Below, one piece after another: positions 3,670 through 17,690 of a stretch of DNA of 29,479 nt. Made by a program: the position numbers and the translations under genes. Numbering within the stretch: position 1 is the stretch's first letter; the number at the start of each line of letters is the position of its first letter. Origin of the DNA: a virus (Duplodnaviria > Caudoviricetes); IMG/VR virus record IMGVR_UViG_3300012942_000107, positions 1 through 29,479 of that record; one strand, written 5' to 3'. Under the pieces are notes generated by a model. That model was not told where the DNA came from and searched no databases. It saw only the letters and a program-made list of their open reading frames with translations.

Positions 3670-3704
3670 CCGCCGTAATCGCCACGCCTCGCCGTCGCCA
3701 TCAT
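3670..3704 (+). promoter_or_regulatory. Putative late promoter, leaderless portal mRNA
   Basis: CCGCCGTAATC 3670-3680, CATCAT 3699-3704, ATG 7 nt later, no SD. Confidence 0.75.
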
Positions 3705-3711
3705 CGCGCGC

Positions 3712-6417
3712 ATGGGCGTCGTGCGAAACCTATTCGATGGGCTGACGAACGCCCTCTCCGGCCTCGGCGGCAGTCACGATCCGCGTAGCTACAACCGTTA
3801 TTTCGTCATTCCGAAGACCGACCCCGAGATCGATGCGGCCTATCGCGGCTCGTGGGTCATGCGGAAGATCATCGACAAGCCCGCGACCGAGATGGTGCGG
3901 GAGTGGCGCGACTGGCAAGCGGACAGTGGCGATATTGAAAAGCTGGAGGCCGAGGAAAAGCGGCTCGATCTGCGCAACAAGGTTCGCCGCGCCGAGATGC
4001 TACGTGGCCTGGGCGGCGCTGGCATGGTGCTGTGGACCGACGATTCCGACCAATCGCAGCCGCTGAAACCTGAAAGCATCCAGACCGGCGGCCTGAAGGT
4101 TATCCACGTCTGGCATCGCAGCCGCTTCCAGCTCGGCGACATGATCGAGGACTGGCGCGATCCGTGGTTCGGTCATCCGAGCTATTACGAGGTTCAGCTT
4201 CAAGGGCAGGCCGGTAGCCGCGCGGTTCGTTTCCACCCGTCCCGCGTCGTCGCCTTCCGTGCCGATCCGGTCGCCGAAATCGTCGGCGCGGGATGGGCGG
4301 ATTGCTTTTGGGGGCAGAGCAAGGTCGAAACTGTGCTATCCGCCGTCGAGAACGTGGACACGGCGGAGGCCGGATTCGCGGCGCTCATCAAGGATGCGCG
4401 CAACCGACGGTTGTACGTCCCGAAGCTGACTGAGCAATTCGCAACCGAGGAGGGCGAGAAGCGATTCACGCGTCGCGCGACCGCGTTGGCGATGGGCGAA
4501 TCCACGCTCGGCATCACGTTTCTTGACGCCGGCACCGCGACCGGTTCGGATGGCAAGGCGACGGGCGGCGAGAAGCTGGAAGACCGCCAGATGGTCTGGA
4601 CAGGCATACCGGACATCAAGTCGAGCTATTGGAACGCTGCCGCTGCCGCTGCCGACATGCCAGCGACCGTGCTGTGGGGCGTCTCGCCGCAGGGGATGAA
4701 CGCTACCGGACAGTCCGATATCGAACTGTGGCACAAAACCATTCGCGGCCGGCAAGACCTCGACCTCCGCCCGTGCATGACGCAGATCGACGCAGCGCTT
4801 ATCCCGTCCGCGCTCGGCAAGGTCGATGATACGATCTGGTATGAGTGGGCTCCGCTCTCGACGCAGAGCGAGAAGGACGAGGCCAACACCTTCTTCCTGT
4901 TCATGCAGGCGGCGGAGAAGCTGCAAGCCACCGGCGCGATTCCCGACATCGCGTTCGAGAAGGCGTTGCAGAACACGATGGAGGAGCGGGGCTGGCTTCC
5001 CGGTATCGGCGATGCGCTCGCCGAGATGCCGGAAGACGAGCGCTTCCCCAGCCTCGCCGCGCCCGATCCGAGCGAGGGCGATCCCAGTGCGCTCGGCTTC
5101 GATCCCAGCATGGAAGGAGGTGATCCGTTTATCTCGCCGTCGCCGGGGCAGTCCATGGAAGCGGCTCCCCGGCGACGCGCCGCCAATGACATGCGCTTCA
5201 CCGATGCGGAGCCGCGCACACTCTATGTGCAGCGCAAGCTGCTCAACGCCGCCGATTTCATCCGCTGGGCGAAGGCGCAGGGGTTCGACACCATGACGCC
5301 GGCCGCCGAGTTGCATGTCACCATCGCTTACAGCCGCACGCCGCTCGATTGGATGAAGATCGGGCAGGATTGGTCCAGCGACGCCAGCGGCAATCTCACT
5401 GTTCCGGCGGGTGGTCCGCGCATCGTTCAGCGGCTCGGCGACAAGGGCGCGGTTGTGCTGCTGTTCGGATCGAACGATCTGGCGTGGCGGCACAAGGCGA
5501 TCCTCGAAGCGGGCGCATCGTTCGACTTCGACGAATATCAGCCCCACGTCACGATCACCTATGCCGCCCCGGCCGATTTCGATCTGGCGAAAGTCCAACC
5601 CTACACGGGGCCGCTCAAGTTCGGGCCGGAGCTGTTCAGCGAGGTTGACGAGGATTGGGTGCCCAAGGTTGTCGAGGACGGATTCTCCTTTGCGGATATC
5701 GGCGGTCACGGCGGCAACCCGAACCATGATCCGCACAATGGGCAGTTCACCAGCGGGCCGGGTGGCTCTTTGGCCCATGACTTGGAAGAACTTTTGTCGG
5801 GCAACATCAAGTCGAACCCAAAGACTATTGCTCGAAAACTTCGGGCCAAGGGCTATGATGTTGCCAGCGATCATCCTGAGATCGCGAAGGCGGTCAAAGC
5901 GCAGCACGAACGGATCGACGCCGGGCATCGACGCCTTGCCGAACGTCTCGCCAGCCCTGAGCACAGGGCAAAAATCGCGGAATTAACGAAGCGGCGTGAG
6001 GCAGAAGCAACTGCGCGGGCAGAACCGTATGAGAAAGCCCCGATGATGCAGCATTTCTCGCCGAAGGAGCGAGCTGAGATTATCGACCATGCACGCGCTG
6101 GCAGAGAAGATTATGCCGAAGCATATGCAAGGCTCGCCACGGTCGGGGCTATTGCGAAGCAAGCCAAATCCGATGGTTGGACTATTCGCCACGTTTCGAA
6201 GGAAGGGTCGCGCGCGACATCGCGATACCTTGTTCACCCAAACGGTAATGAAGTCCGGGTTTCTGACCACTTCATTCCAAGCACCCCAAAGCGGGAAGCC
6301 GGATACCGTGGCAAGTGGGCTGGCGAGCTTGTGGTTGGCCGCGAATGGCGCTCGCAGTCGCTCAAAGACTATATGGATGAACTTCAAAGCATAGCAACCG
6401 AGACGAACGAGGATTGA
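3712..6417 (+). CDS. Portal protein (DUF1073-like) fused to an Acb1-like 2H phosphoesterase and an unknown C-terminal domain
   Basis: aa 1-~440 portal-like (Y..SW..RKIID.PA.EM.REW, FHPSRV, P.T.L.G.SP.GMNATG); aa ~499-650 with two HxT motifs (LHVTIAYS, YQPHVTITY); extra ~240 aa after that. Confidence 0.85.
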   Translation: MGVVRNLFDGLTNALSGLGGSHDPRSYNRYFVIPKTDPEIDAAYRGSWVMRKIIDKPATEMVREWRDWQADSGDIEKLEAEEKRLDLRNKVRRAEMLRGLGGAGMVLWTDDSDQSQPLKPESIQTGGLKVIHVWHRSRFQLGDMIEDWRDPWFGHPSYYEVQLQGQAGSRAVRFHPSRVVAFRADPVAEIVGAGWADCFWGQSKVETVLSAVENVDTAEAGFAALIKDARNRRLYVPKLTEQFATEEGEKRFTRRATALAMGESTLGITFLDAGTATGSDGKATGGEKLEDRQMVWTGIPDIKSSYWNAAAAAADMPATVLWGVSPQGMNATGQSDIELWHKTIRGRQDLDLRPCMTQIDAALIPSALGKVDDTIWYEWAPLSTQSEKDEANTFFLFMQAAEKLQATGAIPDIAFEKALQNTMEERGWLPGIGDALAEMPEDERFPSLAAPDPSEGDPSALGFDPSMEGGDPFISPSPGQSMEAAPRRRAANDMRFTDAEPRTLYVQRKLLNAADFIRWAKAQGFDTMTPAAELHVTIAYSRTPLDWMKIGQDWSSDASGNLTVPAGGPRIVQRLGDKGAVVLLFGSNDLAWRHKAILEAGASFDFDEYQPHVTITYAAPADFDLAKVQPYTGPLKFGPELFSEVDEDWVPKVVEDGFSFADIGGHGGNPNHDPHNGQFTSGPGGSLAHDLEELLSGNIKSNPKTIARKLRAKGYDVASDHPEIAKAVKAQHERIDAGHRRLAERLASPEHRAKIAELTKRREAEATARAEPYEKAPMMQHFSPKERAEIIDHARAGREDYAEAYARLATVGAIAKQAKSDGWTIRHVSKEGSRATSRYLVHPNGNEVRVSDHFIPSTPKREAGYRGKWAGELVVGREWRSQSLKDYMDELQSIATETNED

Positions 6418-6447: not shown

Positions 6448-7356
6448 ATGCGCTGCGCAATCTACACCCGCAAATCCTCCGACGAAGCGCCGGACAGCAA
6501 TCTCAGCTCAATCGAGACGCAGCGCGCGCTGTGCGAAACCTTCATCGCCAGTCAGGCCGCCGAGGGCTGGATGGCGCTGCCCGATCGCTATGACGATCTC
6601 GGTTACAGCGGCGGCACGATAGAGCGCCCGGCGCTCGCTCGCCTTCTCGACGACATCGCCGCCGGGCTGATCGACACGGTGGTGGTCTACAAGATCGACC
6701 GGCTCTCGCGCTCGCTCAGGGATTTCGTGAACCTGATCGACCTGTTCGACAAGGCAGGCGTCTCGTTCCTCTCCACCACACAGCAGTTCAGCACGACGAG
6801 CAGCATGGGCCGCCTCACCCTCAATATCCTGCTCACCTTCGCGCAATTCGAGCGCGAAATGGCGGGCGAGCGCACCCGCGATTGGGTGGCCGGAGCCCGG
6901 AAGCGCGGCATCTGGACGAGCGGGCCGCCGCCCTTCGGCTATATGCGCCGGGATGGGCGGCTCGCGCCTCACCCGGAGCGCGCGGAGGTGGTCCGCTGGG
7001 TGTTCCGCCGCCTGCCTCGCGCCAAATGCTTCGGGACGGTCGCGCATGAGTTGAACGCGGCCGGTCATCGCAATCGTTTCGGCCGGACATTCGACGGCCG
7101 CACCGTCAAGACCATGATCGAGAACCGGGTCTATCTCGGCGAGATGAGGCATCGAGGCGAGCATATTCCCGGCACGCACGAGCCGCTGGTCACGTCTGCG
7201 ATGTGGCGGAGCGCGCAGAAGGCGGTCGCGGAAATCCGGGCCGGAAGATATGGGCAGATGGGAGCGTGGCAGAGAAGTCGGAAGATTGCCGCCCCGGTTG
7301 GGCTGGTGGAGCCCGATAAGAGATCGCGGTCTTCCGGGGCGGCAGCGCAACCGTAA
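6448..7356 (+). CDS. Serine recombinase (resolvase catalytic domain plus recombinase domain)
   Basis: YTRKS catalytic Ser, D.GYSG...ERPAL, VYKIDRLSR, FAQFERE, PFGY, N.VYLG, HEPLV; no C-terminal zinc ribbon or coiled coil. Confidence 0.92.
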   Translation: MRCAIYTRKSSDEAPDSNLSSIETQRALCETFIASQAAEGWMALPDRYDDLGYSGGTIERPALARLLDDIAAGLIDTVVVYKIDRLSRSLRDFVNLIDLFDKAGVSFLSTTQQFSTTSSMGRLTLNILLTFAQFEREMAGERTRDWVAGARKRGIWTSGPPPFGYMRRDGRLAPHPERAEVVRWVFRRLPRAKCFGTVAHELNAAGHRNRFGRTFDGRTVKTMIENRVYLGEMRHRGEHIPGTHEPLVTSAMWRSAQKAVAEIRAGRYGQMGAWQRSRKIAAPVGLVEPDKRSRSSGAAAQP

Positions 7357-12213: not shown

Positions 12214-12642
12214 CTATATCGTGACGCAGCGGATGCGGAAACTCTGGATCGTGTGAAAAATCTTCGACTCGTGTGGGTCTTGAACAAGACGCGGCCCTGT
12301 CCATTGGAATCGGGCCTTACCACCGGGGATCACTGCAACCTTCCTGTCTAATGCCCCCGCTATAGCCGCCCCGATTTGACCGGCGTGGTTATCGGCGGAA
12401 ATGGAAGGCTGAATTTCGTTCGCAAAGCCGTGAATCGCTAGCGTCACCTCTAGCCCATCGAGGCAGCTCGCGCGCATCGGAACACCGCTTGGTGGCCCCA
12501 TACGGATGAAGGGATAGGGCGGCACCGCTGGTGTCCATTGCGTAAAGATACGCGCCTTCGGCACCAGCGCGGTCACGCCCGCATCGGCCTTGAGCAACTT
12601 CAGCGCGGCGTTGCGGACAGCCAGGGTGGAATCAATCGCCAT
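12214..12642 (-). CDS. Tail terminator protein (DUF3168-like)
   Basis: L..L.ADA.V.ALV...RI......P.YPFI..G; last gene of the neck module. Confidence 0.8.
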   Translation of the reverse strand: MAIDSTLAVRNAALKLLKADAGVTALVPKARIFTQWTPAVPPYPFIRMGPPSGVPMRASCLDGLEVTLAIHGFANEIQPSISADNHAGQIGAAIAGALDRKVAVIPGGKARFQWTGPRLVQDPHESKIFHTIQSFRIRCVTI

Positions 12643-13057
12643 CGCGTCCTCCGCGCTTGATCTCGATCCGCACCGCGTCGCCTACCAGCTTCACGGCCTC
12701 CGCACGCCTCTTCGCGACGGCCGGGGCCATGTAGGGGCGCGGGGCCATTTTCGACGTGCCGTATTCCAAGGCGCTGGCATAACGAGCATTGGAGGACACT
12801 TCGACAAGCAGGGGCTCGACAAGTACCGTCTCGATATTGTTCGCCAGCACGCCTGTGTCGTTGTTCGGCGGCTCGCCGGGAAGGGATGCGACGTGCCCCT
12901 TGCCGGATACCGATCCTTCCGTGATCGAGATTTGCGCTTCCGTCTGGATCATGTTGCCGGCGGCGAAGAGGGCGCGGCTTATCCGGTCGGCCATGCCGCC
13001 GCCGCCAAGGCCACCGATCCGCTTCGTGGCGGCTTTTCGGCCCGTGATCTTAGGCAC
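12632..13057 (-). CDS. HK97 gp10-like tail completion protein
   Basis: HVAS.PGEPP..DTG.L, ARYA..LEYGTSKMAPRPYM.PA; start uncertain (GTG 13057 or ATG 13075). Confidence 0.85.
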   Translation of the reverse strand: MPKITGRKAATKRIGGLGGGGMADRISRALFAAGNMIQTEAQISITEGSVSGKGHVASLPGEPPNNDTGVLANNIETVLVEPLLVEVSSNARYASALEYGTSKMAPRPYMAPAVAKRRAEAVKLVGDAVRIEIKRGGRDGD

Positions 13058-13430
13058 GCCGCCCCCGCCCGACATAACCTACCCCCGCCGGATCGCGCTC
13101 GATCGACGTGACCGCCCATATCCCCGCGAACGGTCCCTCCGTCACCTTGACGGACGCATCGGTATCGAGCAAGCCCGAGAAGCTGGCGGCGAGGATGATG
13201 AACCGCACGTCGCCGTCCGCGAAGCCGTCGCTCTGGCGCATTGCTTCGGTGGCTTGGTCGATGGAAACTCGACACGCACGCTCGGTGGGAGGCGAGCCCG
13301 GAACCCAATTCCCGTTATCGTCATAATAGCCGGGATTATCTTGCGAGGCGATCGCGCCCGCGAAGAAGGGCGCGCCGAACGCGGCGGCGGCCATATCGGC
13401 GAGGCCGAGGAAGGCGCTGGGCAAATCCAT
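13050..13430 (-). CDS. Head closure / head-tail joining protein
   Basis: 126 aa beta-rich, ends RDPAG.GY..RGR; TGATG overlap with the adaptor gene; position. Confidence 0.65.
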   Translation of the reverse strand: MDLPSAFLGLADMAAAAFGAPFFAGAIASQDNPGYYDDNGNWVPGSPPTERACRVSIDQATEAMRQSDGFADGDVRFIILAASFSGLLDTDASVKVTEGPFAGIWAVTSIERDPAGVGYVGRGRRA

Positions 13431-13882
13431 CAACAATTCCAGGGCGGCAGCGGCCCGGCATAGCCGTTGAAGCCGCACGACGCGGGAATGCAGCCCGGCG
13501 AGGTCGTGCCCATCCCGCTCTTGTTCCGGCGTAGCAGGGCAAGATAGTCCTGCCCATATACGGTGGATTCCCACCCGCCGTCGATGGCTTTCTTTACCGC
13601 TTCATCGGAGAATTGTGCCGCAAACGAGCCCGACCGGAACTGCGTCACGCCGGTCGATGTCATGCCTGCCGTATCGGCACCAGCGATGCCCGAAACGCCC
13701 GCACGGAGCATATTATGTGCGGCGGCGGCCAATTTGGCAGGGGCGTAATCGGTATCCGACCATGATTGATCCACAAACCGCGCGCTGTCGTCGATCCAAT
13801 ACTGGACAGTCGCCGTATCCACGTCCGAGAAGGCTGGATATCGGGCCTTCATATCGTCAGGCGATGGATCGCTATAGGCCAT
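13430..13882 (-). CDS. Head-tail adaptor (DUF4054-like)
   Basis: ARYPAFS.V....VQYW, AAH.M, T.YGQ.YL.L; start chosen from the leaderless promoter geometry. Confidence 0.8.
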   Translation of the reverse strand: MAYSDPSPDDMKARYPAFSDVDTATVQYWIDDSARFVDQSWSDTDYAPAKLAAAAHNMLRAGVSGIAGADTAGMTSTGVTQFRSGSFAAQFSDEAVKKAIDGGWESTVYGQDYLALLRRNKSGMGTTSPGCIPASCGFNGYAGPLPPWNC

Positions 13883-13888
13883 CATCAA

Positions 13889-13923
13889 AGCCTATGCGCG
13901 AGCCGTCGTGCGATTACGGCGGA
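13889..13923 (-). promoter_or_regulatory. Putative late promoter for the inverted neck module
   Basis: Minus strand TCCGCCGTAATCG, 19 nt after CCGTAA comes TAGGCT, ATG 6 nt later. Confidence 0.75.
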
Positions 13924-13924
13924 C

Positions 13925-13954
13925 AAAAAGAAGGGCGGCCGATAACGACCGCCC
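13925..13954 (-). terminator. Intrinsic terminator closing the repeat array
   Basis: Minus strand GGGCGGTCG-TTAT-CGGCCGCCC-TTCTTTTT. Confidence 0.85.
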
Positions 13955-13960
13955 TCCCGA

Positions 13961-14125
13961 GCCTGCCCAGCCCTGACTCGCCTCAGCGCGCCAAGCCCGG
14001 CCGTGCCGCGCCTCGCCTTGCCAAGCCCAGCCTAGCCTGCCACGCCTCGCCTATCCTCGCCGCGCCATACCTCTCCTGACCTTGCCGTGCCGCGCCTCGC
14101 CGCGCCCGACCTAGCCTTGCCTGCC
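13961..14125 (-). ncRNA. GGY-NN pentamer array, putative guide RNA precursor with two units
   Basis: Minus strand: GGCA, 16 pentamers (14121-14042), GGCA, 14 pentamers (14037-13968), GGCA-GGC; 26 of 30 triplets are GGC/GGT with a variable dinucleotide; starts 14 nt after a stop codon and ends before a terminator. Confidence 0.8.
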
Positions 14126-14139
14126 ATGTTTCGGCCCCT

Positions 14140-14622
14140 TTATTCGGCGGGACGAGCCTGTTCGATCAACGCGAAAATCTTCGCGAGTTCGGCCAGCTCT
14201 GCGTAGCGACGATGCCACGCCTCCAATTCGGCCCAAGCCTGTGCGACGACTTGGGCGCGAAGCTCTTCATCCGATAGCGCATGTTGGAGGCTGGTATAGC
14301 TCCTGTCTTCATCGCGCTTCACCGAAACGAACGCCCGGATGGGAGCGGACGAGCCGTCCTGCTTCTCCATCACCACGTCGATATGGCGGATGAGGTGCAT
14401 TGCCTGCGTCTTCCGGTGTTCTTCGGCCGCCTTGGCGTCGTCCCACTCGAATACGTTATGAAGTGGCGCGTCTCCCGGCCGGGACGCCTCAACAACGTCA
14501 TACGCCTCCAGCCGACCGTTGTGGAACGTGCGAATGCGCTCCAATTCCTCTCCGACGATCTGCGCATCAATGCCGCCCGGAGCGACATTCCCTTTCCATT
14601 GGTAGACCATCCCCATCATCAT
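14140..14622 (-). CDS. Partner protein of the Cas7-like gene (160 aa, helical)
   Basis: ATGA coupling to the RAMP gene; VVE.SR...APLH..FEWDD..AAE.HR..QA..LIR motif; function unknown. Confidence 0.75.
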   Translation of the reverse strand: MMMGMVYQWKGNVAPGGIDAQIVGEELERIRTFHNGRLEAYDVVEASRPGDAPLHNVFEWDDAKAAEEHRKTQAMHLIRHIDVVMEKQDGSSAPIRAFVSVKRDEDRSYTSLQHALSDEELRAQVVAQAWAELEAWHRRYAELAELAKIFALIEQARPAE

Positions 14623-15209
14623 GCCTCCTCGCTGGAGCCGACATGGAAGCGGCCATAGCTGCCGTTCTTTTCCGGCCGCCATTCGCCGATGCCGACGCCA
14701 AAACCAGCCGTGTTGAGCAGGTTCGCGATCTGCTCGGCTGACATCACGGCCGCGTTGAACTTGATCGTCGCCGGGATGCGCCATTCCGGGAACTCGGGAC
14801 GATAGCGAATGTCCGCCGTCCCCATCCCAACGCGCACCATGTCCTCGCGTGGTCGGGGCTCGCCGATAACCTCCAACATCTCGGCGTCGATATGGAACGC
14901 GCCACGCGCCATCGTCATCTTCGCATCCACGAAGCGGCAAGCCGATACCATAGCCGCCTTAACGCCGATTGCCGGGAAACCGTAAGCGCCGGATTCGGTG
15001 CGGTAGAAGCAGGCTTCGTAATCGGCCTCGGGGTCTTTCGCCTCTCTCGCCTTGGCCGCCTTCTTCATCTGCTTGTCCAGCATCTGGCGCTTGGCCTTCT
15101 CACTCCATGCATGGACGATCAGCGGGCTATCGCCCACCAGCATGAACGTAATGGTCTGGATGTTGAGCGGCGGCAATTCGATCGTCGCCGATGATTTCGA
15201 AACTGGCAT
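14619..15209 (-). CDS. Solo Cas7/RAMP-like RNA-binding protein (196 aa)
   Basis: AGGAGG SD; N-terminal strand LVGDSPLIVH, FPAIGVKAAM (RAMP IP.S..KG equivalent), thumb REDMVRVGMGTADIRYRPEF, C-terminal Gly loop GFGVGIGEWRPEKNGSYGRF.V; no other cas genes in the window. Confidence 0.75.
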   Translation of the reverse strand: MPVSKSSATIELPPLNIQTITFMLVGDSPLIVHAWSEKAKRQMLDKQMKKAAKAREAKDPEADYEACFYRTESGAYGFPAIGVKAAMVSACRFVDAKMTMARGAFHIDAEMLEVIGEPRPREDMVRVGMGTADIRYRPEFPEWRIPATIKFNAAVMSAEQIANLLNTAGFGVGIGEWRPEKNGSYGRFHVGSSEEA

Positions 15210-15276
15210 TGGATTCCTCCTGTTTAGGGAAAGCATTTTCACCGATGGGGGCTACATGACTAGGGACAATCTGGCG

Positions 15277-15663
15277 TCAGTGCGCGGCGAGGCGGCGCAG
15301 ATCGGCGATGATCCGGCCGATATGCCCCTCGCCGGATTCGTCCCCATATTCCTTGAGGTAGATTTCCAGCTTCTCGATTGCAGCGGCGCTGTCCGGCGCA
15401 GGCACCGCCATAAGATCATCGACCGATTGCACGGCCCTGCGGACATGGAGCTTATTGTCTGCATCCATGCGGGCGTAATCCGGATCGCCGGGCACGGCCG
15501 TATTGAATGGATGCGCGTCCAGTTCGGCCCATGCCTGATGATAGCAAGCCTTCGCGGCTGTCCAGTTGTCCCGGTTCGCGAGGGCTGGAATGGCGGGGAG
15601 CGTCAGCAACGGAGCCGCCGCCATTGCGCCAAGCACGCCGCGACGGGTGGTGTTCGTGTCCAT
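15277..15663 (-). CDS. Hypothetical protein with twin-arginine-like N-terminus
   Basis: MDTNTTRRGVLGAMAAAPLL; PAPD..A...KL and I.ADLRRL motifs; TGATG coupling. Confidence 0.7.
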   Translation of the reverse strand: MDTNTTRRGVLGAMAAAPLLTLPAIPALANRDNWTAAKACYHQAWAELDAHPFNTAVPGDPDYARMDADNKLHVRRAVQSVDDLMAVPAPDSAAAIEKLEIYLKEYGDESGEGHIGRIIADLRRLAAH

Positions 15664-15974
15664 CACGCCGCCTCCCGATATTCGATATGGCCGAGCAGCG
15701 CGCCTTCGCCATCGAAGATGGACCTTTCGATCCGCTTGCGCTCGTCGATCGCGCACCAGAGGAGACGCCAAATCTTGTGAACGTCATGCCGGATCGGCCA
15801 CGACTGCTCGCGCGCAGTTTCCTCCACGCCTTCGCAGAGATCGGCGACCGTCTCCAACAGCACTTCGAGGTTGGACATGGCCGCCTGGGCTTCGAGGATG
15901 AAGCCTTGCACCTCCTCATAGGGGAAGGCGCTCAGATAGACCGTGGTTTTCGGGGCGGGCTGTTGGATCGGCAT
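15663..15974 (-). CDS. Hypothetical protein (103 aa)
   Basis: GGAGG SD, TGATG coupling at both ends. Confidence 0.65.
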   Translation of the reverse strand: MPIQQPAPKTTVYLSAFPYEEVQGFILEAQAAMSNLEVLLETVADLCEGVEETAREQSWPIRHDVHKIWRLLWCAIDERKRIERSIFDGEGALLGHIEYREAA

Positions 15975-16150
15975 CACAGCCTCCCCTCGGCGCGCTTCTC
16001 GGCCCAGCCGAGCGCGAAGATCGTGTTCCACGCCCGGATATGGACCGGGTTGCTATAATCGAACGGGACGACGCCCGGCGCGAACGGCGGCGGATCGCGG
16101 CCGTTGTCATTGGCAGCGCGGGGCGGAAACGGTATGACGTTCGAAGCCAT
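15974..16150 (-). CDS. Hypothetical protein (58 aa, not in ORF track)
   Basis: GGAG SD; MASNVIPFPPRAANDNG...NPVHIRAWNTIFALG; first gene of the leftward island operon. Confidence 0.6.
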   Translation of the reverse strand: MASNVIPFPPRAANDNGRDPPPFAPGVVPFDYSNPVHIRAWNTIFALGWAEKRAEGRL

Positions 16151-16218
16151 GATCGATCTCCAAGGGATCGGTTGCGGTCAGGGCCGGGCGGGTGTTGGTA
16201 GCGCCCGTTCGGCCTGTC

Positions 16219-16262
16219 CTACGTATGCTCCGTATTGCCTACGGTGTCAACGGGTGCTACGT
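16219..16262. promoter_or_regulatory. Divergent promoter/operator region of the island
   Basis: TTGACA on the minus strand at 16245-16250; five CTACG-like hexamers at 16219, 16228, 16239, 16248 and 16257. Confidence 0.55.
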
Positions 16263-16269
16263 AGAAAAT

Positions 16270-16419
16270 ATGAGCAGCGATCCCATGAAGCGATTTGAGA
16301 TGCTCGCGCCTCCCGCATGGATCGCGCGCGTGGACGAATGGCGTCGCCAGCAACCGGACCTGCCTTCTCGCGCCGAAGCGATCCGCCGCCTGGTCGAGAA
16401 AGGGCTTGATCGGGAGTGA
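16270..16419 (+). CDS. CopG/RHH-like repressor (49 aa)
   Basis: RFEM......ARVDEWRR.Q.DLPSRAEAIRRLVE.GL. Confidence 0.8.
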   Translation: MSSDPMKRFEMLAPPAWIARVDEWRRQQPDLPSRAEAIRRLVEKGLDRE

Positions 16420-16634
16420 ATCGCAAGCAAAAGGCCGCCGCCAAAGGGCGGAACGAAGTCAGGAAGCTGCTTGCCGGGGTTGTCAGCAATGGCGGCTTTG
16501 GCTTGATCGTCTGGGGTGCGGCGGCCATCTACAGGCGCTCACCCGGCGTATCCTACGTTCTATGGATCGGGGTGGGCGTCATGCTCGTTATGGTTTCGTG
16601 CGCGATCGTGCGCTATATAGAGCCGGAGGAGTGA
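16416..16634 (+). CDS. Small membrane protein (2 TM)
   Basis: GTGA coupling; two hydrophobic segments. Confidence 0.55.
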   Translation: MNRKQKAAAKGRNEVRKLLAGVVSNGGFGLIVWGAAAIYRRSPGVSYVLWIGVGVMLVMVSCAIVRYIEPEE

Positions 16635-16638
16635 ACGG

Positions 16639-16755
16639 ATGAACCTCTATCAGAACCTTCCCCCGGTGATCGCACTGGCTCTCGCGCTGGCGGCATGGGG
16701 TGCCGTGGCGCTGCAATCCCGCGCGGCAAAGAAGCATGTCCACGATCGGGATTGA
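16639..16755 (+). CDS. Small membrane peptide (38 aa)
   Basis: GGAG SD; MNLYQNLPPVIALALALAAWGAVALQSRAAKKHVHDRD. Confidence 0.45.
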   Translation: MNLYQNLPPVIALALALAAWGAVALQSRAAKKHVHDRD

Positions 16756-16957
16756 TCCTCGCTTATACGAGGTTCGGATCGCGCCACATGATCTCGGCTA
16801 CATCGCCGTCGTCCCCGAACTGCCGGGCTGCATGTCCGATGGTGAAACGCCCGAGGAGGCGCTTGCGAACGGATATGACGCGGCCGGTGCGTGGATCGAG
16901 GCGGCGCGCGAGATGGGTCGTGAAGTTCCTACTCCGATGCGTCGCGCCTACGCCTGA
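16736..16957 (+). CDS. hicB: HicB-family antitoxin domain (orphan)
   Basis: GYIAVVPELPGCMSDGETPEEALAN..DA...WIE......R.VP.P. Confidence 0.85.
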   Translation: MSTIGIDPRLYEVRIAPHDLGYIAVVPELPGCMSDGETPEEALANGYDAAGAWIEAAREMGREVPTPMRRAYA

Positions 16958-17016
16958 CCGGGATTGATTCCCGCCCTCTCTGACGCGTAGGCTCGCCCTC
17001 TCAATGGGAGGAGCCA

Positions 17017-17316
17017 ATGATTCTGCTCGCGGCGATGTTGGCGGCTTCGGCAAATTATGATGCCGCGATCATCGCCGAGGCGAAGACGAGCATCGCTAAC
17101 GAATTGCTCGATCCGCAGGCAGCGCAGTTTCGCGGCATCCATGTCGTCCCCGGTGCCAACGGCGGCAGGAAGGTTTGCGGCGAGGTGAACGGCAAGAACA
17201 GCTATGGTGGCTATGTTGGCTTCCGTGGCTTTGCTTACGAAGGCGCATATCACACCGGAGCGATCAAAAATCCGGATGAGATCACGATTTATGAAACAAT
17301 GGCGAAGGGGTGCTAA
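17017..17316 (+). CDS. Secreted/periplasmic moron protein
   Basis: GGAGG SD, signal-like N-terminus, L.DP..AQFR and VCGEVNGKNSYGGYVGF motifs, terminal Cys. Confidence 0.7.
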   Translation: MILLAAMLAASANYDAAIIAEAKTSIANELLDPQAAQFRGIHVVPGANGGRKVCGEVNGKNSYGGYVGFRGFAYEGAYHTGAIKNPDEITIYETMAKGC

Positions 17317-17588
17317 GCCTTTTCGCCTCCATCCCCCTCCCGCATCTTCCGCTCGATCATCCTGGTCCGCGCCACCATCTCGCGACGCCGCCGATCGGCT
17401 GGCGCGTCGGCCGTTCGCCTCACCATCTCGCCCATATCCGGTAGCAGGCGCACGTTCATGGCGAGCACTTCGGATTCGGTATCGCCGGTAAGATCGGCGG
17501 CGATGCCCTCGATCGCCTCGCGCGACAGCACGCCATCGGCATAGAGCCGCTCGATCAGCGACAGGAGGAGGACGCGATCCGCCGACAT
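17313..17588 (-). CDS. Hypothetical protein (91 aa)
   Basis: Fills the gap; TAGGCT box 8 nt before ATG; convergent stop overlap. Confidence 0.5.
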   Translation of the reverse strand: MSADRVLLLSLIERLYADGVLSREAIEGIAADLTGDTESEVLAMNVRLLPDMGEMVRRTADAPADRRRREMVARTRMIERKMREGDGGEKA

Positions 17589-17627
17589 TCGGACGCAGCC
17601 TAGCCCAAGCGCAGGCGAGATGCACGC

Positions 17628-17662
17628 CCGCCGTAATCGGGGCTTCGGCCCGGCCCTACCCT
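17628..17662 (+). promoter_or_regulatory. Putative late promoter for the tail operon
   Basis: CCGCCGTAATC 17628-17638, TACCCT 17657-17662, short leader with GGAG. Confidence 0.75.
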
Positions 17663-17690
17663 CCCGGCAAATCATCGCCGGGAGCGCGCA

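Follow-up and report, generated by a model that had tools for sequence, protein, structure and literature searches.

A phage VIPR guide that matches orthologues of the head-tail adaptor gene beside its own cassette

Introduction

In the VIPR system, as the VIPR preprints describe it, the protein Vipr polymerises on the GGY triplets of a guide RNA, the NN dinucleotides pair with DNA in which each third base is passed over, and binding represses transcription on either strand. The published rule (10.64898/2026.04.26.720920) places the one-base skip at the wobble position of codons and sets a bar of 80% for a match. The type II form is reported from Escherichia phage SUSP1 and a Pseudomonas fulva prophage clade (10.64898/2026.04.26.720920; 10.64898/2026.04.26.720927). 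The pairing code, the wobble phase, staggered arrays, guides against vipr and lower scores for self than for non-self are already known.

The window analysed here, a stretch of 29,479 nucleotides from a tailed phage (Caudoviricetes; IMG/VR record IMGVR_UViG_3300012942_000107), contains a GGY/NN repeat next to a gene of the head-tail connector. A first-pass annotation, made from the sequence alone, had proposed that the second unit of this repeat is a guide against the orthologue of that gene in a relative, that it skips wobble positions, and that the resident copy is mismatched enough to escape. Why would a phage carry a guide that resembles a virion gene of its own, and which DNA does this guide fit best?

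Results

A staggered array of two guides lies beside vipr and an accessory gene

The vipr gene (14619..15209, minus strand; alternative start GTG at 15242) encodes a RAMP protein of 196 amino acids (phrog_4652). Its predicted model (pLDDT 88.9) had Cas7/Csm3 folds as top structural matches, with a TM of about 0.5; a fold predicted from the single sequence was set aside (pLDDT 37.7). Vipr aligned with phiSUSP1 by tblastn (25.5% over 93%, E 4e-5) and, across 65 C-terminal columns, with SUSP1 Vipr by hhalign (98% probability, E 1.6e-13). In fold and alignment Vipr is thus a stand-alone RAMP with the RRM core, thumb and G-loop of VIPR proteins. Residues of the thumb and the G-loop are aligned as well, R137, E176, W177 and R178 here corresponding to R138, D177, W178 and R179 of SUSP1, and the phiSUSP1 numbering agrees with the residues named in the structure preprint (10.64898/2026.04.26.720927). 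A vap-like accessory gene on the same strand (14140..14619) encodes 159 amino acids without a Pfam domain (phrog_15946, listed as of unknown function). A homologue of this gene is present at 70 of 80 related vipr loci, and an atlas search with the protein returned unnamed viral clusters only. In family searches, Vipr and the accessory protein were assigned to no nuclease family, such as GIY-YIG or HNH, and to no Pfam family or named PHROG. Among the 30 ORFs of the window that were scanned, none belonged to a cas family; the two genes of a minimal locus, vipr and the accessory gene, are both there.

The array lies on the minus strand and begins with guide 1, a GGCA head followed by 16 GGY/NN units (14042..14125; units 14121-14042). 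Guide 2 has the same head and 14 units (13968..14041; units 14037-13968). A third GGCA head, a remnant unit and a terminator-like hairpin of 13 bp close the array (13929..13967, minus strand); the hairpin had a z of -4.9, and 0 of 200 shuffles folded equally well. Five of the 30 fixed triplets deviate from GGY (three GGA, one GCT and one GTC). The NN strings given for both units by the first-pass annotation were confirmed when the minus strand was re-read from 14125. Guide arrays were found in most related vipr loci, and the array would be transcribed together with vipr and vap. On the grounds of the homology and fold of Vipr, the accessory gene and the staggered two-guide GGYNN array, the locus is therefore assigned to VIPR.

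The locus shares with SUSP1 VIPR a Vipr homologue, a two-gene operon, 9-16 GGY/NN repeats, the one-base skip, the wobble phase, targets in other phages and an own copy that scores below 80%. It differs in its staggered array, in 4-nt GGCA heads and in having a single hairpin at the end of the array where SUSP1 has a tail behind every guide; the accessory protein gave no alignment with the gene after SUSP1 vipr. A structured tail per guide and Vap1, which mark type II (SUSP1-like) systems, are absent here. The array is instead like the published staggered vrRNA arrays (10.64898/2026.04.26.720920, legend of fig. S18), in which the register shifts by one base between guides and each new guide begins where the previous one ends. 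Elsewhere among related loci, staggered arrays of about 30 guides were seen in L031 (5317-7860) and L030, the close clade having typically 1-4, and in L025 one vipr locus is surrounded by two arrays on opposite strands, at 2146-2209 and roughly 1.9 kb from there. Mycobacterium and Gordonia phage records (H21-H47 and H111-H135) hold homologues of both Vipr (40-47%) and the accessory protein.

Upstream of vipr, the region 15277..16419 contains three small ORFs on the minus strand; divergent from these, on the plus strand, is a small repressor-like gene (16192-16419; phrog_4738, transcriptional repressor, E 2.5e-5). Eight of the 19 closest loci have homologues of these genes ahead of vipr, and the ORFs and the repressor-like gene are likely part of the inserted cassette.

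The neck module and the VIPR cassette (12214-17675) are on the minus strand, and the terminase, portal, capsid and tail genes are on the plus strand. One sequencing-run contig covers 11890-18500 without a difference from the window. No inverted repeats were found at the edges of the 12214-17675 block. A serine recombinase/invertase-like gene lies between the portal and head morphogenesis genes (6448-7356) and is a possible cause of the inversion. In the portal gene (3712-6417), the portal protein is joined with an Acb1 anti-CBASS domain (PF23474, E 1.3e-38) and a 250-aa tail of unknown kind, and a HicB-like antitoxin gene is located at 16700-16957.

A motif, CGCCGTAATCG, precedes the adaptor gene (13911..13921, minus strand). 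With at most one mismatch it occurs 12 times in the window, against a mean of 1.6 and a maximum of 6 in shuffles. Copies at 3671, 9295, 12196, 13921, 17629, 20851 and 25369 include those placed about 25-60 bases before the portal, protease, adaptor, major tail, distal tail and fibre genes, and an orphan copy (12196) that faces the inverted block. The motif was also present in 14 of 244 loci. By its placement, CGCCGTAATCG is likely a late promoter or operator.

Guide 2 resembles the adaptor gene next to the array

The first gene after the array (13430..13885, minus strand, 456 nt) encodes a DUF4054 head-tail adaptor-like protein (PF13262, E 6.5e-20; phrog_302), the adaptor label coming from an 'adaptor protein' annotation in one phage record. 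The rest of the neck module (12214..13430, minus strand) consists of a 126-aa gene, head closure by position, an HK97-gp10-like neck gene and a tail terminator. Scanned with a one-base skip over the whole window, guide 2 had its best site at 13801-13760 on the minus strand (the resident site, 13760..13801), with 19/28 bases and 7/14 dinucleotides matched. This site is in phase with the codons of the DUF4054 gene (YWIDDSARFVDQSW), and 8/14 residues are compatible; all three counts are exactly those of the first-pass annotation. In the window as a whole, 50 of 1000 shuffled-NN guides reached at least 19 (p 0.05), and within the 456-nt adaptor gene 7 of 5000 did so (p 0.0014). The own-gene match had been called marginal by itself, on a hand estimate of about 0.1 such matches by chance, and the window-wide shuffles bear this out.

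Guide 2 fits adaptor orthologues at the same position

In a homologue search made with the resident adaptor and blind to the guide, the family consensus at the guide 2 site was YWLTDAxRFVDQSW. When 123 of these proteins were scored, compatibility with guide 2 averaged 9.4/14, with 12 for the best and 8 for the resident protein, whereas 300 shuffled guides averaged 4.7/14 against adaptor proteins and reached at most 9. The residues of guide 2 that are rarer in the family all occur naturally: N at position 4 (in L090 and L116), T at position 7 (in L093) and A at position 10 (in 3 of 122 proteins).

At the DNA level, sites were collected by degenerate DNA scans (6, 7 and 23 loci) and by alignment searches (22 loci; 8 of 401 genomes). 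Of the 42 aligned rows, six were set aside (the resident and five with gaps at the site), and the other 36 are distinct non-self sites without gaps. The scores were 25, 24, 24, six at 23, and so on down to 14 of 28; nine of the 36 passed the 80% bar, against 68% for the resident. The best site (25/28) is in a prophage of a Sphingomonas phyllosphaerae MAG (L093), and those at 24/28 are in L090 and L116. These top matches were drawn with degenerate patterns in which 18 bases of the guide were kept constant, and among the 30 sites that were also recovered by alignment there were one at 25 (the genome on which the draw was centred), three at 23 and the remainder at 21 or lower. The comparison of the best of many non-self sites with a single self copy is also biased upward. 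All of the best sites occupy the same position in DUF4054 orthologues, with the one-base skip in the wobble phase. In the seven dinucleotides at the 3' end, 13/14 bases were matched in eight of the nine top sites, compared with 10/14 in the resident.

The proposal that guide 2 fits a relative's adaptor orthologue while skipping wobble positions is thus borne out by sites of 25, 24 and 24 at the identical position where the resident has 19. Of the gap sizes 0-3, the one-base skip gave the best matches, at the DUF4054 locus, and it alone exceeded the shuffles: skips of 0, 2 and 3 reached at most 19/28, and 200 shuffled guides at most 21, in 425 kb, and 25 shuffles of guide 2 across 1.67 Mb reached at most 22. 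Third codon positions are the least conserved at the adaptor site (0.67, compared with 0.85 and 0.85 for the other two).

Across all sites searched there was no perfect target of guide 2, the best being 25/28. At position 3 of the guide, 32 of 36 orthologues have CT, which would form a G-U wobble; at position 10, 35 of 36 have GT, which is mismatched. An exact scan of viral contigs with the last nine dinucleotides found nothing, as did a single-protein locus search using the adaptor. An exact match of the first nine dinucleotides, in two contigs and one unrelated gene, came to 21/28 overall and was taken as chance. Loose-pattern matches outside adaptor genes (19-21/28, several with in-frame stops) were left uncounted. 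Within 401 Sphingomonas genomes, the adaptor site of L093, the genome at the centre of the draw, was the only one with three mismatches or fewer, and a reversed-pattern control gave 0. By a hand estimate, chance alone would yield about one match of 25/28 across all GTDB; the weight of this match therefore rests on its falling in the gene that had been named beforehand. A chance resemblance could draw on the self match, which alone has a p of 0.05, and on the unrelated gene that reaches 21/28, but the guide-blind protein test, the skip and shuffle controls and the scores of orthologue sites make such a coincidence very improbable.

No vipr gene was found in the 13 adaptor-bearing genomes and records searched (5 + 8). 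The best-matching records lack vipr, and the genes that surround their adaptor follow the same order; before the adaptor, the L090 record has only one short inserted gene and the L093 record has other genes. From the named genomes that hold adaptor orthologues, we infer a sphingomonad host for the phage.

The lower score of the resident copy is shared by its subclade

The claim that the resident copy is mismatched enough to escape held in one respect, its lower score (68% compared with at least 80%); selection for escape at the site was not supported. The eight members of the subclade of the resident score 19-21/28, and the two best sites (L090 and L093) form a separate, well-supported pair. 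The resident departs from conserved residues at 3 of 10 positions inside the site and at 4 of 38 outside (p 0.15), although its change from Ala to Ser at the site is rare (1 of 122 homologues). Because the whole subclade scores 19-21 and departures are not enriched at the site, specific escape is not established as selected. A trend for the guide to avoid close kin was also dropped: identity to the resident was no predictor of the guide score (rho 0.31, p 0.07; above 40% identity, rho 0.13, p 0.49).

Guide 1 has no target above shuffles

The same kind of pattern search had been proposed for the first unit; when it was run, no target exceeded the shuffles. Two exact scans of viral contigs with guide 1 gave 0 and 0, and its best score across 40 phage records was 22/32, below the shuffles. 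A match in one of the 401 Sphingomonas genomes (3 mismatches in 24, 23/32 overall) was at shuffle level. The best self match, in frame in the portal gene, was 20/32 (p 0.59) and was ascribed to chance.

In close relatives, guides fit genes that flank the cassette

We compared 46 guides from 23 VIPR records, namely the window, 18 records with vipr 70-90% identical and four with about 50%, with 40 phage records, some whole and some partial, that total 1.67 Mb, using 25 shuffles per guide. Guides were parsed heuristically, and some units were missed. A non-self match above all 25 shuffles was found for 11 of the 46 guides; that of L065 was dropped, the gene being non-orthologous. Of the remaining ten, three match vipr and seven match virion genes. 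In the eight cases in which the orthologous site of the carrier was visible (two L021 guides were left out at record ends), this site lay 175-3987 bases from the array and scored below the non-self site.

A significant self-similar site was found for 14 of the 46 guides (binomial p 3e-8). Such sites cluster near the array (Fisher p 3.4e-5), which the 32 non-significant guides do not (p 0.31). Proximity persisted when the worst guide per record over 20 kb was taken (9 records; p 3.4e-4) and when the window and the vipr case were left out (p 0.005). The gene that is matched tracks the insertion site: the adaptor in the window, the neck gene in L015 and the tape measure in L010, L018 and L023. 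Further flank matches concern the gene after the tape measure in L009 (222 aa), a likely tail-tube gene in L012 and a head morphogenesis gene in L058; in L009, L012, L018 and L023 the genes were labelled by their position or by resemblance to L022. Two L018 guides are antisense to the tape measure, yet all coding cases, these included, are in the wobble phase.

This neighbour pattern was noticed after the fact in the close clade. In a second sample that was fixed in advance (87 guides, 23 distant records), five guides had a significant self-similar site, which is the chance level (p 0.44), and four of these five sites lie within 3.6 kb of the array (p 0.013). Since the distant sample is at chance level, the pattern is supported in the close clade only: there, guides fit orthologues of genes that lie 0.2-4 kb from the cassette carrying the guide.

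Two other accounts of this pattern were weighed. Under ordinary competition between phages, guides would match conserved virion genes without any linkage, and cassettes would merely happen to sit among such genes. All targets other than vipr are indeed late genes, tape-measure genes are long, and the distant sample has no excess of self-similar guides. However, proximity persisted under the strictest null, a 20-kb late region (p 0.034), and short genes (the adaptor, the neck gene and the 222-aa gene of L009) are matched precisely where they form the structural flank of the cassette. We consider competition without linkage possible, at rather low confidence. Alternatively, guides may be written from the DNA beside the cassette at insertion or recombination, guide 2 having since decayed, which is compatible with silencing of rivals. 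The proximity pattern and the two transition differences of guide 2 from nearly all orthologues would accord with such a footprint, but the wobble phase in all coding cases, including the two antisense L018 guides, points to selection on function. Guide 2 also fits the subclade of the resident less well than the L090/L093 pair and was therefore not copied from a recent ancestor of the resident. In the passages searched of the VIPR preprints (10.64898/2026.04.26.720920, 10.64898/2026.10.15.759431), no mechanism of guide acquisition is given. We regard this footprint or relic as rather unlikely.

Guides against vipr and matches to self

The vipr gene of the window is itself a target of relatives. 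A site at 14814..14846 (minus strand) is matched 22/22 by an L022 guide and 16/16 by an L010 guide, and another at 14997..15023 (minus strand) is matched 17/18 by an L063 guide. The L022 guide scored only 16/22 against the vipr of L022, compared with 22/22 for non-self. In the carriers of anti-vipr guides, vipr is most altered at the site (four residues in L022 and two in L010, against 0-1 in other close relatives). Guides aimed at relatives' vipr and vrRNA, with self scores below non-self scores, are described in SUSP1-family phages (10.64898/2026.10.15.759431), and the guides of L010, L022 and L063 likewise target VIPR parts of relatives. The main text of that preprint concerns Enterobacteriaceae phages and satellites, and no cassette-flanking structural targets were found there, unlike in the close clade here.

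An L010 guide matches the tape-measure gene of its own phage at 18/20 (7118-7171 and 8403), and no non-self match was better. Other self matches of at least 80% are those of L009 (20/24) and L023 (21/26). With self matches of 80-90% in relatives, self-regulation is therefore still conceivable in those relatives. For the window, such a reading would have guide 2 bind its own neighbour weakly, to dampen late genes or transcription that runs on from the cassette, the fit to relatives being a by-product of conservation. It would explain why the resident site is the best in the window. Against it, the resident match of 68% is below the published bar, the other orthologues are matched better by guide 2 (mean 20.7) than by the resident site itself (mean 18.8), and the carriers of anti-vipr guides deviate from the consensus that their own guide matches perfectly. 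Moreover, 10.64898/2026.04.26.720920 reports no self hits of at least 80% in the clades that it tested. We therefore give self-regulation by guide 2 little credence.

Discussion

The GGY/NN repeat forms the guide array of a VIPR system, in which guide 2 probably directs Vipr to silence the neck genes of rival phages while sparing those of its own phage. In the rival, guide 2 would find its site on the template strand of the first neck-module gene, some 85 bases after the start of that gene. Vipr bound there would block expression of the adaptor, closure, neck and terminator genes during co-infection or superinfection. Linkage of a guide to a poorly matching allele would give rise to the bias toward neighbouring genes. 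A guide against a gene that the carrier needs is safe only while it is joined to an allele with a poor match; flank-directed guides would therefore be the ones that survive recombination. Guides surviving in this way would favour inheritance of the cassette together with its flank, by silencing and not by cutting. The cassette thus likely silences rivals' versions of neighbouring genes, and it would spread like a selfish element.

In a wider and more tentative reading, the clade would be an RNA-guided, nuclease-free phage gene drive: the cassette would settle between virion genes, acquire guides against rivals' vipr and against their alleles of whichever gene flanks it, and, by silencing these in mixed infection, drive inheritance of itself with its flank. 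The bias toward flanking genes recalls the free-standing homing endonucleases of T4 (SegE/uvsW, SegF/gene 56 and SegG/gene 32), which are associated with intronless homing and marker exclusion and whose cognate sites fall within neighbouring genes at distances of hundreds to thousands of bases (PMC2988022). As with these, the cassette is intergenic and the target is in a neighbouring conserved gene of relatives that lack the element. The T4 enzymes, however, recognise DNA by protein, cut it and spread by repair of the break (PMC2988022), whereas here recognition would be by RNA and no nuclease family was found.

SUSP1-type VIPR is reported to target satellites and lysogeny regulators, in contrast to the virion genes flanking the cassette here. 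In the main texts of 10.64898/2026.04.26.720920, 10.64898/2026.04.26.720927 and 10.64898/2026.10.15.759431, guides against orthologues of cassette-flanking virion genes were not found; the figures, data files S1-S4 or tables of 10.64898/2026.04.26.720920 may list such targets. The word 'homing' does not occur in the main text of 10.64898/2026.04.26.720920 or 10.64898/2026.10.15.759431, and the passages there with 'adjacent' or 'neighbo' are not about targets.

What is added here is a selection logic in which targets track the position of the cassette, as with homing endonucleases, by silencing and not by cutting. Natural trios of guide, target and self copy (25, 24 and 19/28 here; 22 compared with 16/22 in L022) measure mismatch tolerance and discrimination between self and non-self, and isolated actinophages with homologues of Vipr and the accessory protein (Saal, Brocalys and UmaThurman) are possible cultured test systems. 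The neighbour pattern is a testable lead on the origin of vrRNA guides, and, if the clade does act as a drive, the local origin of its targets may expose how VIPR guides are acquired.
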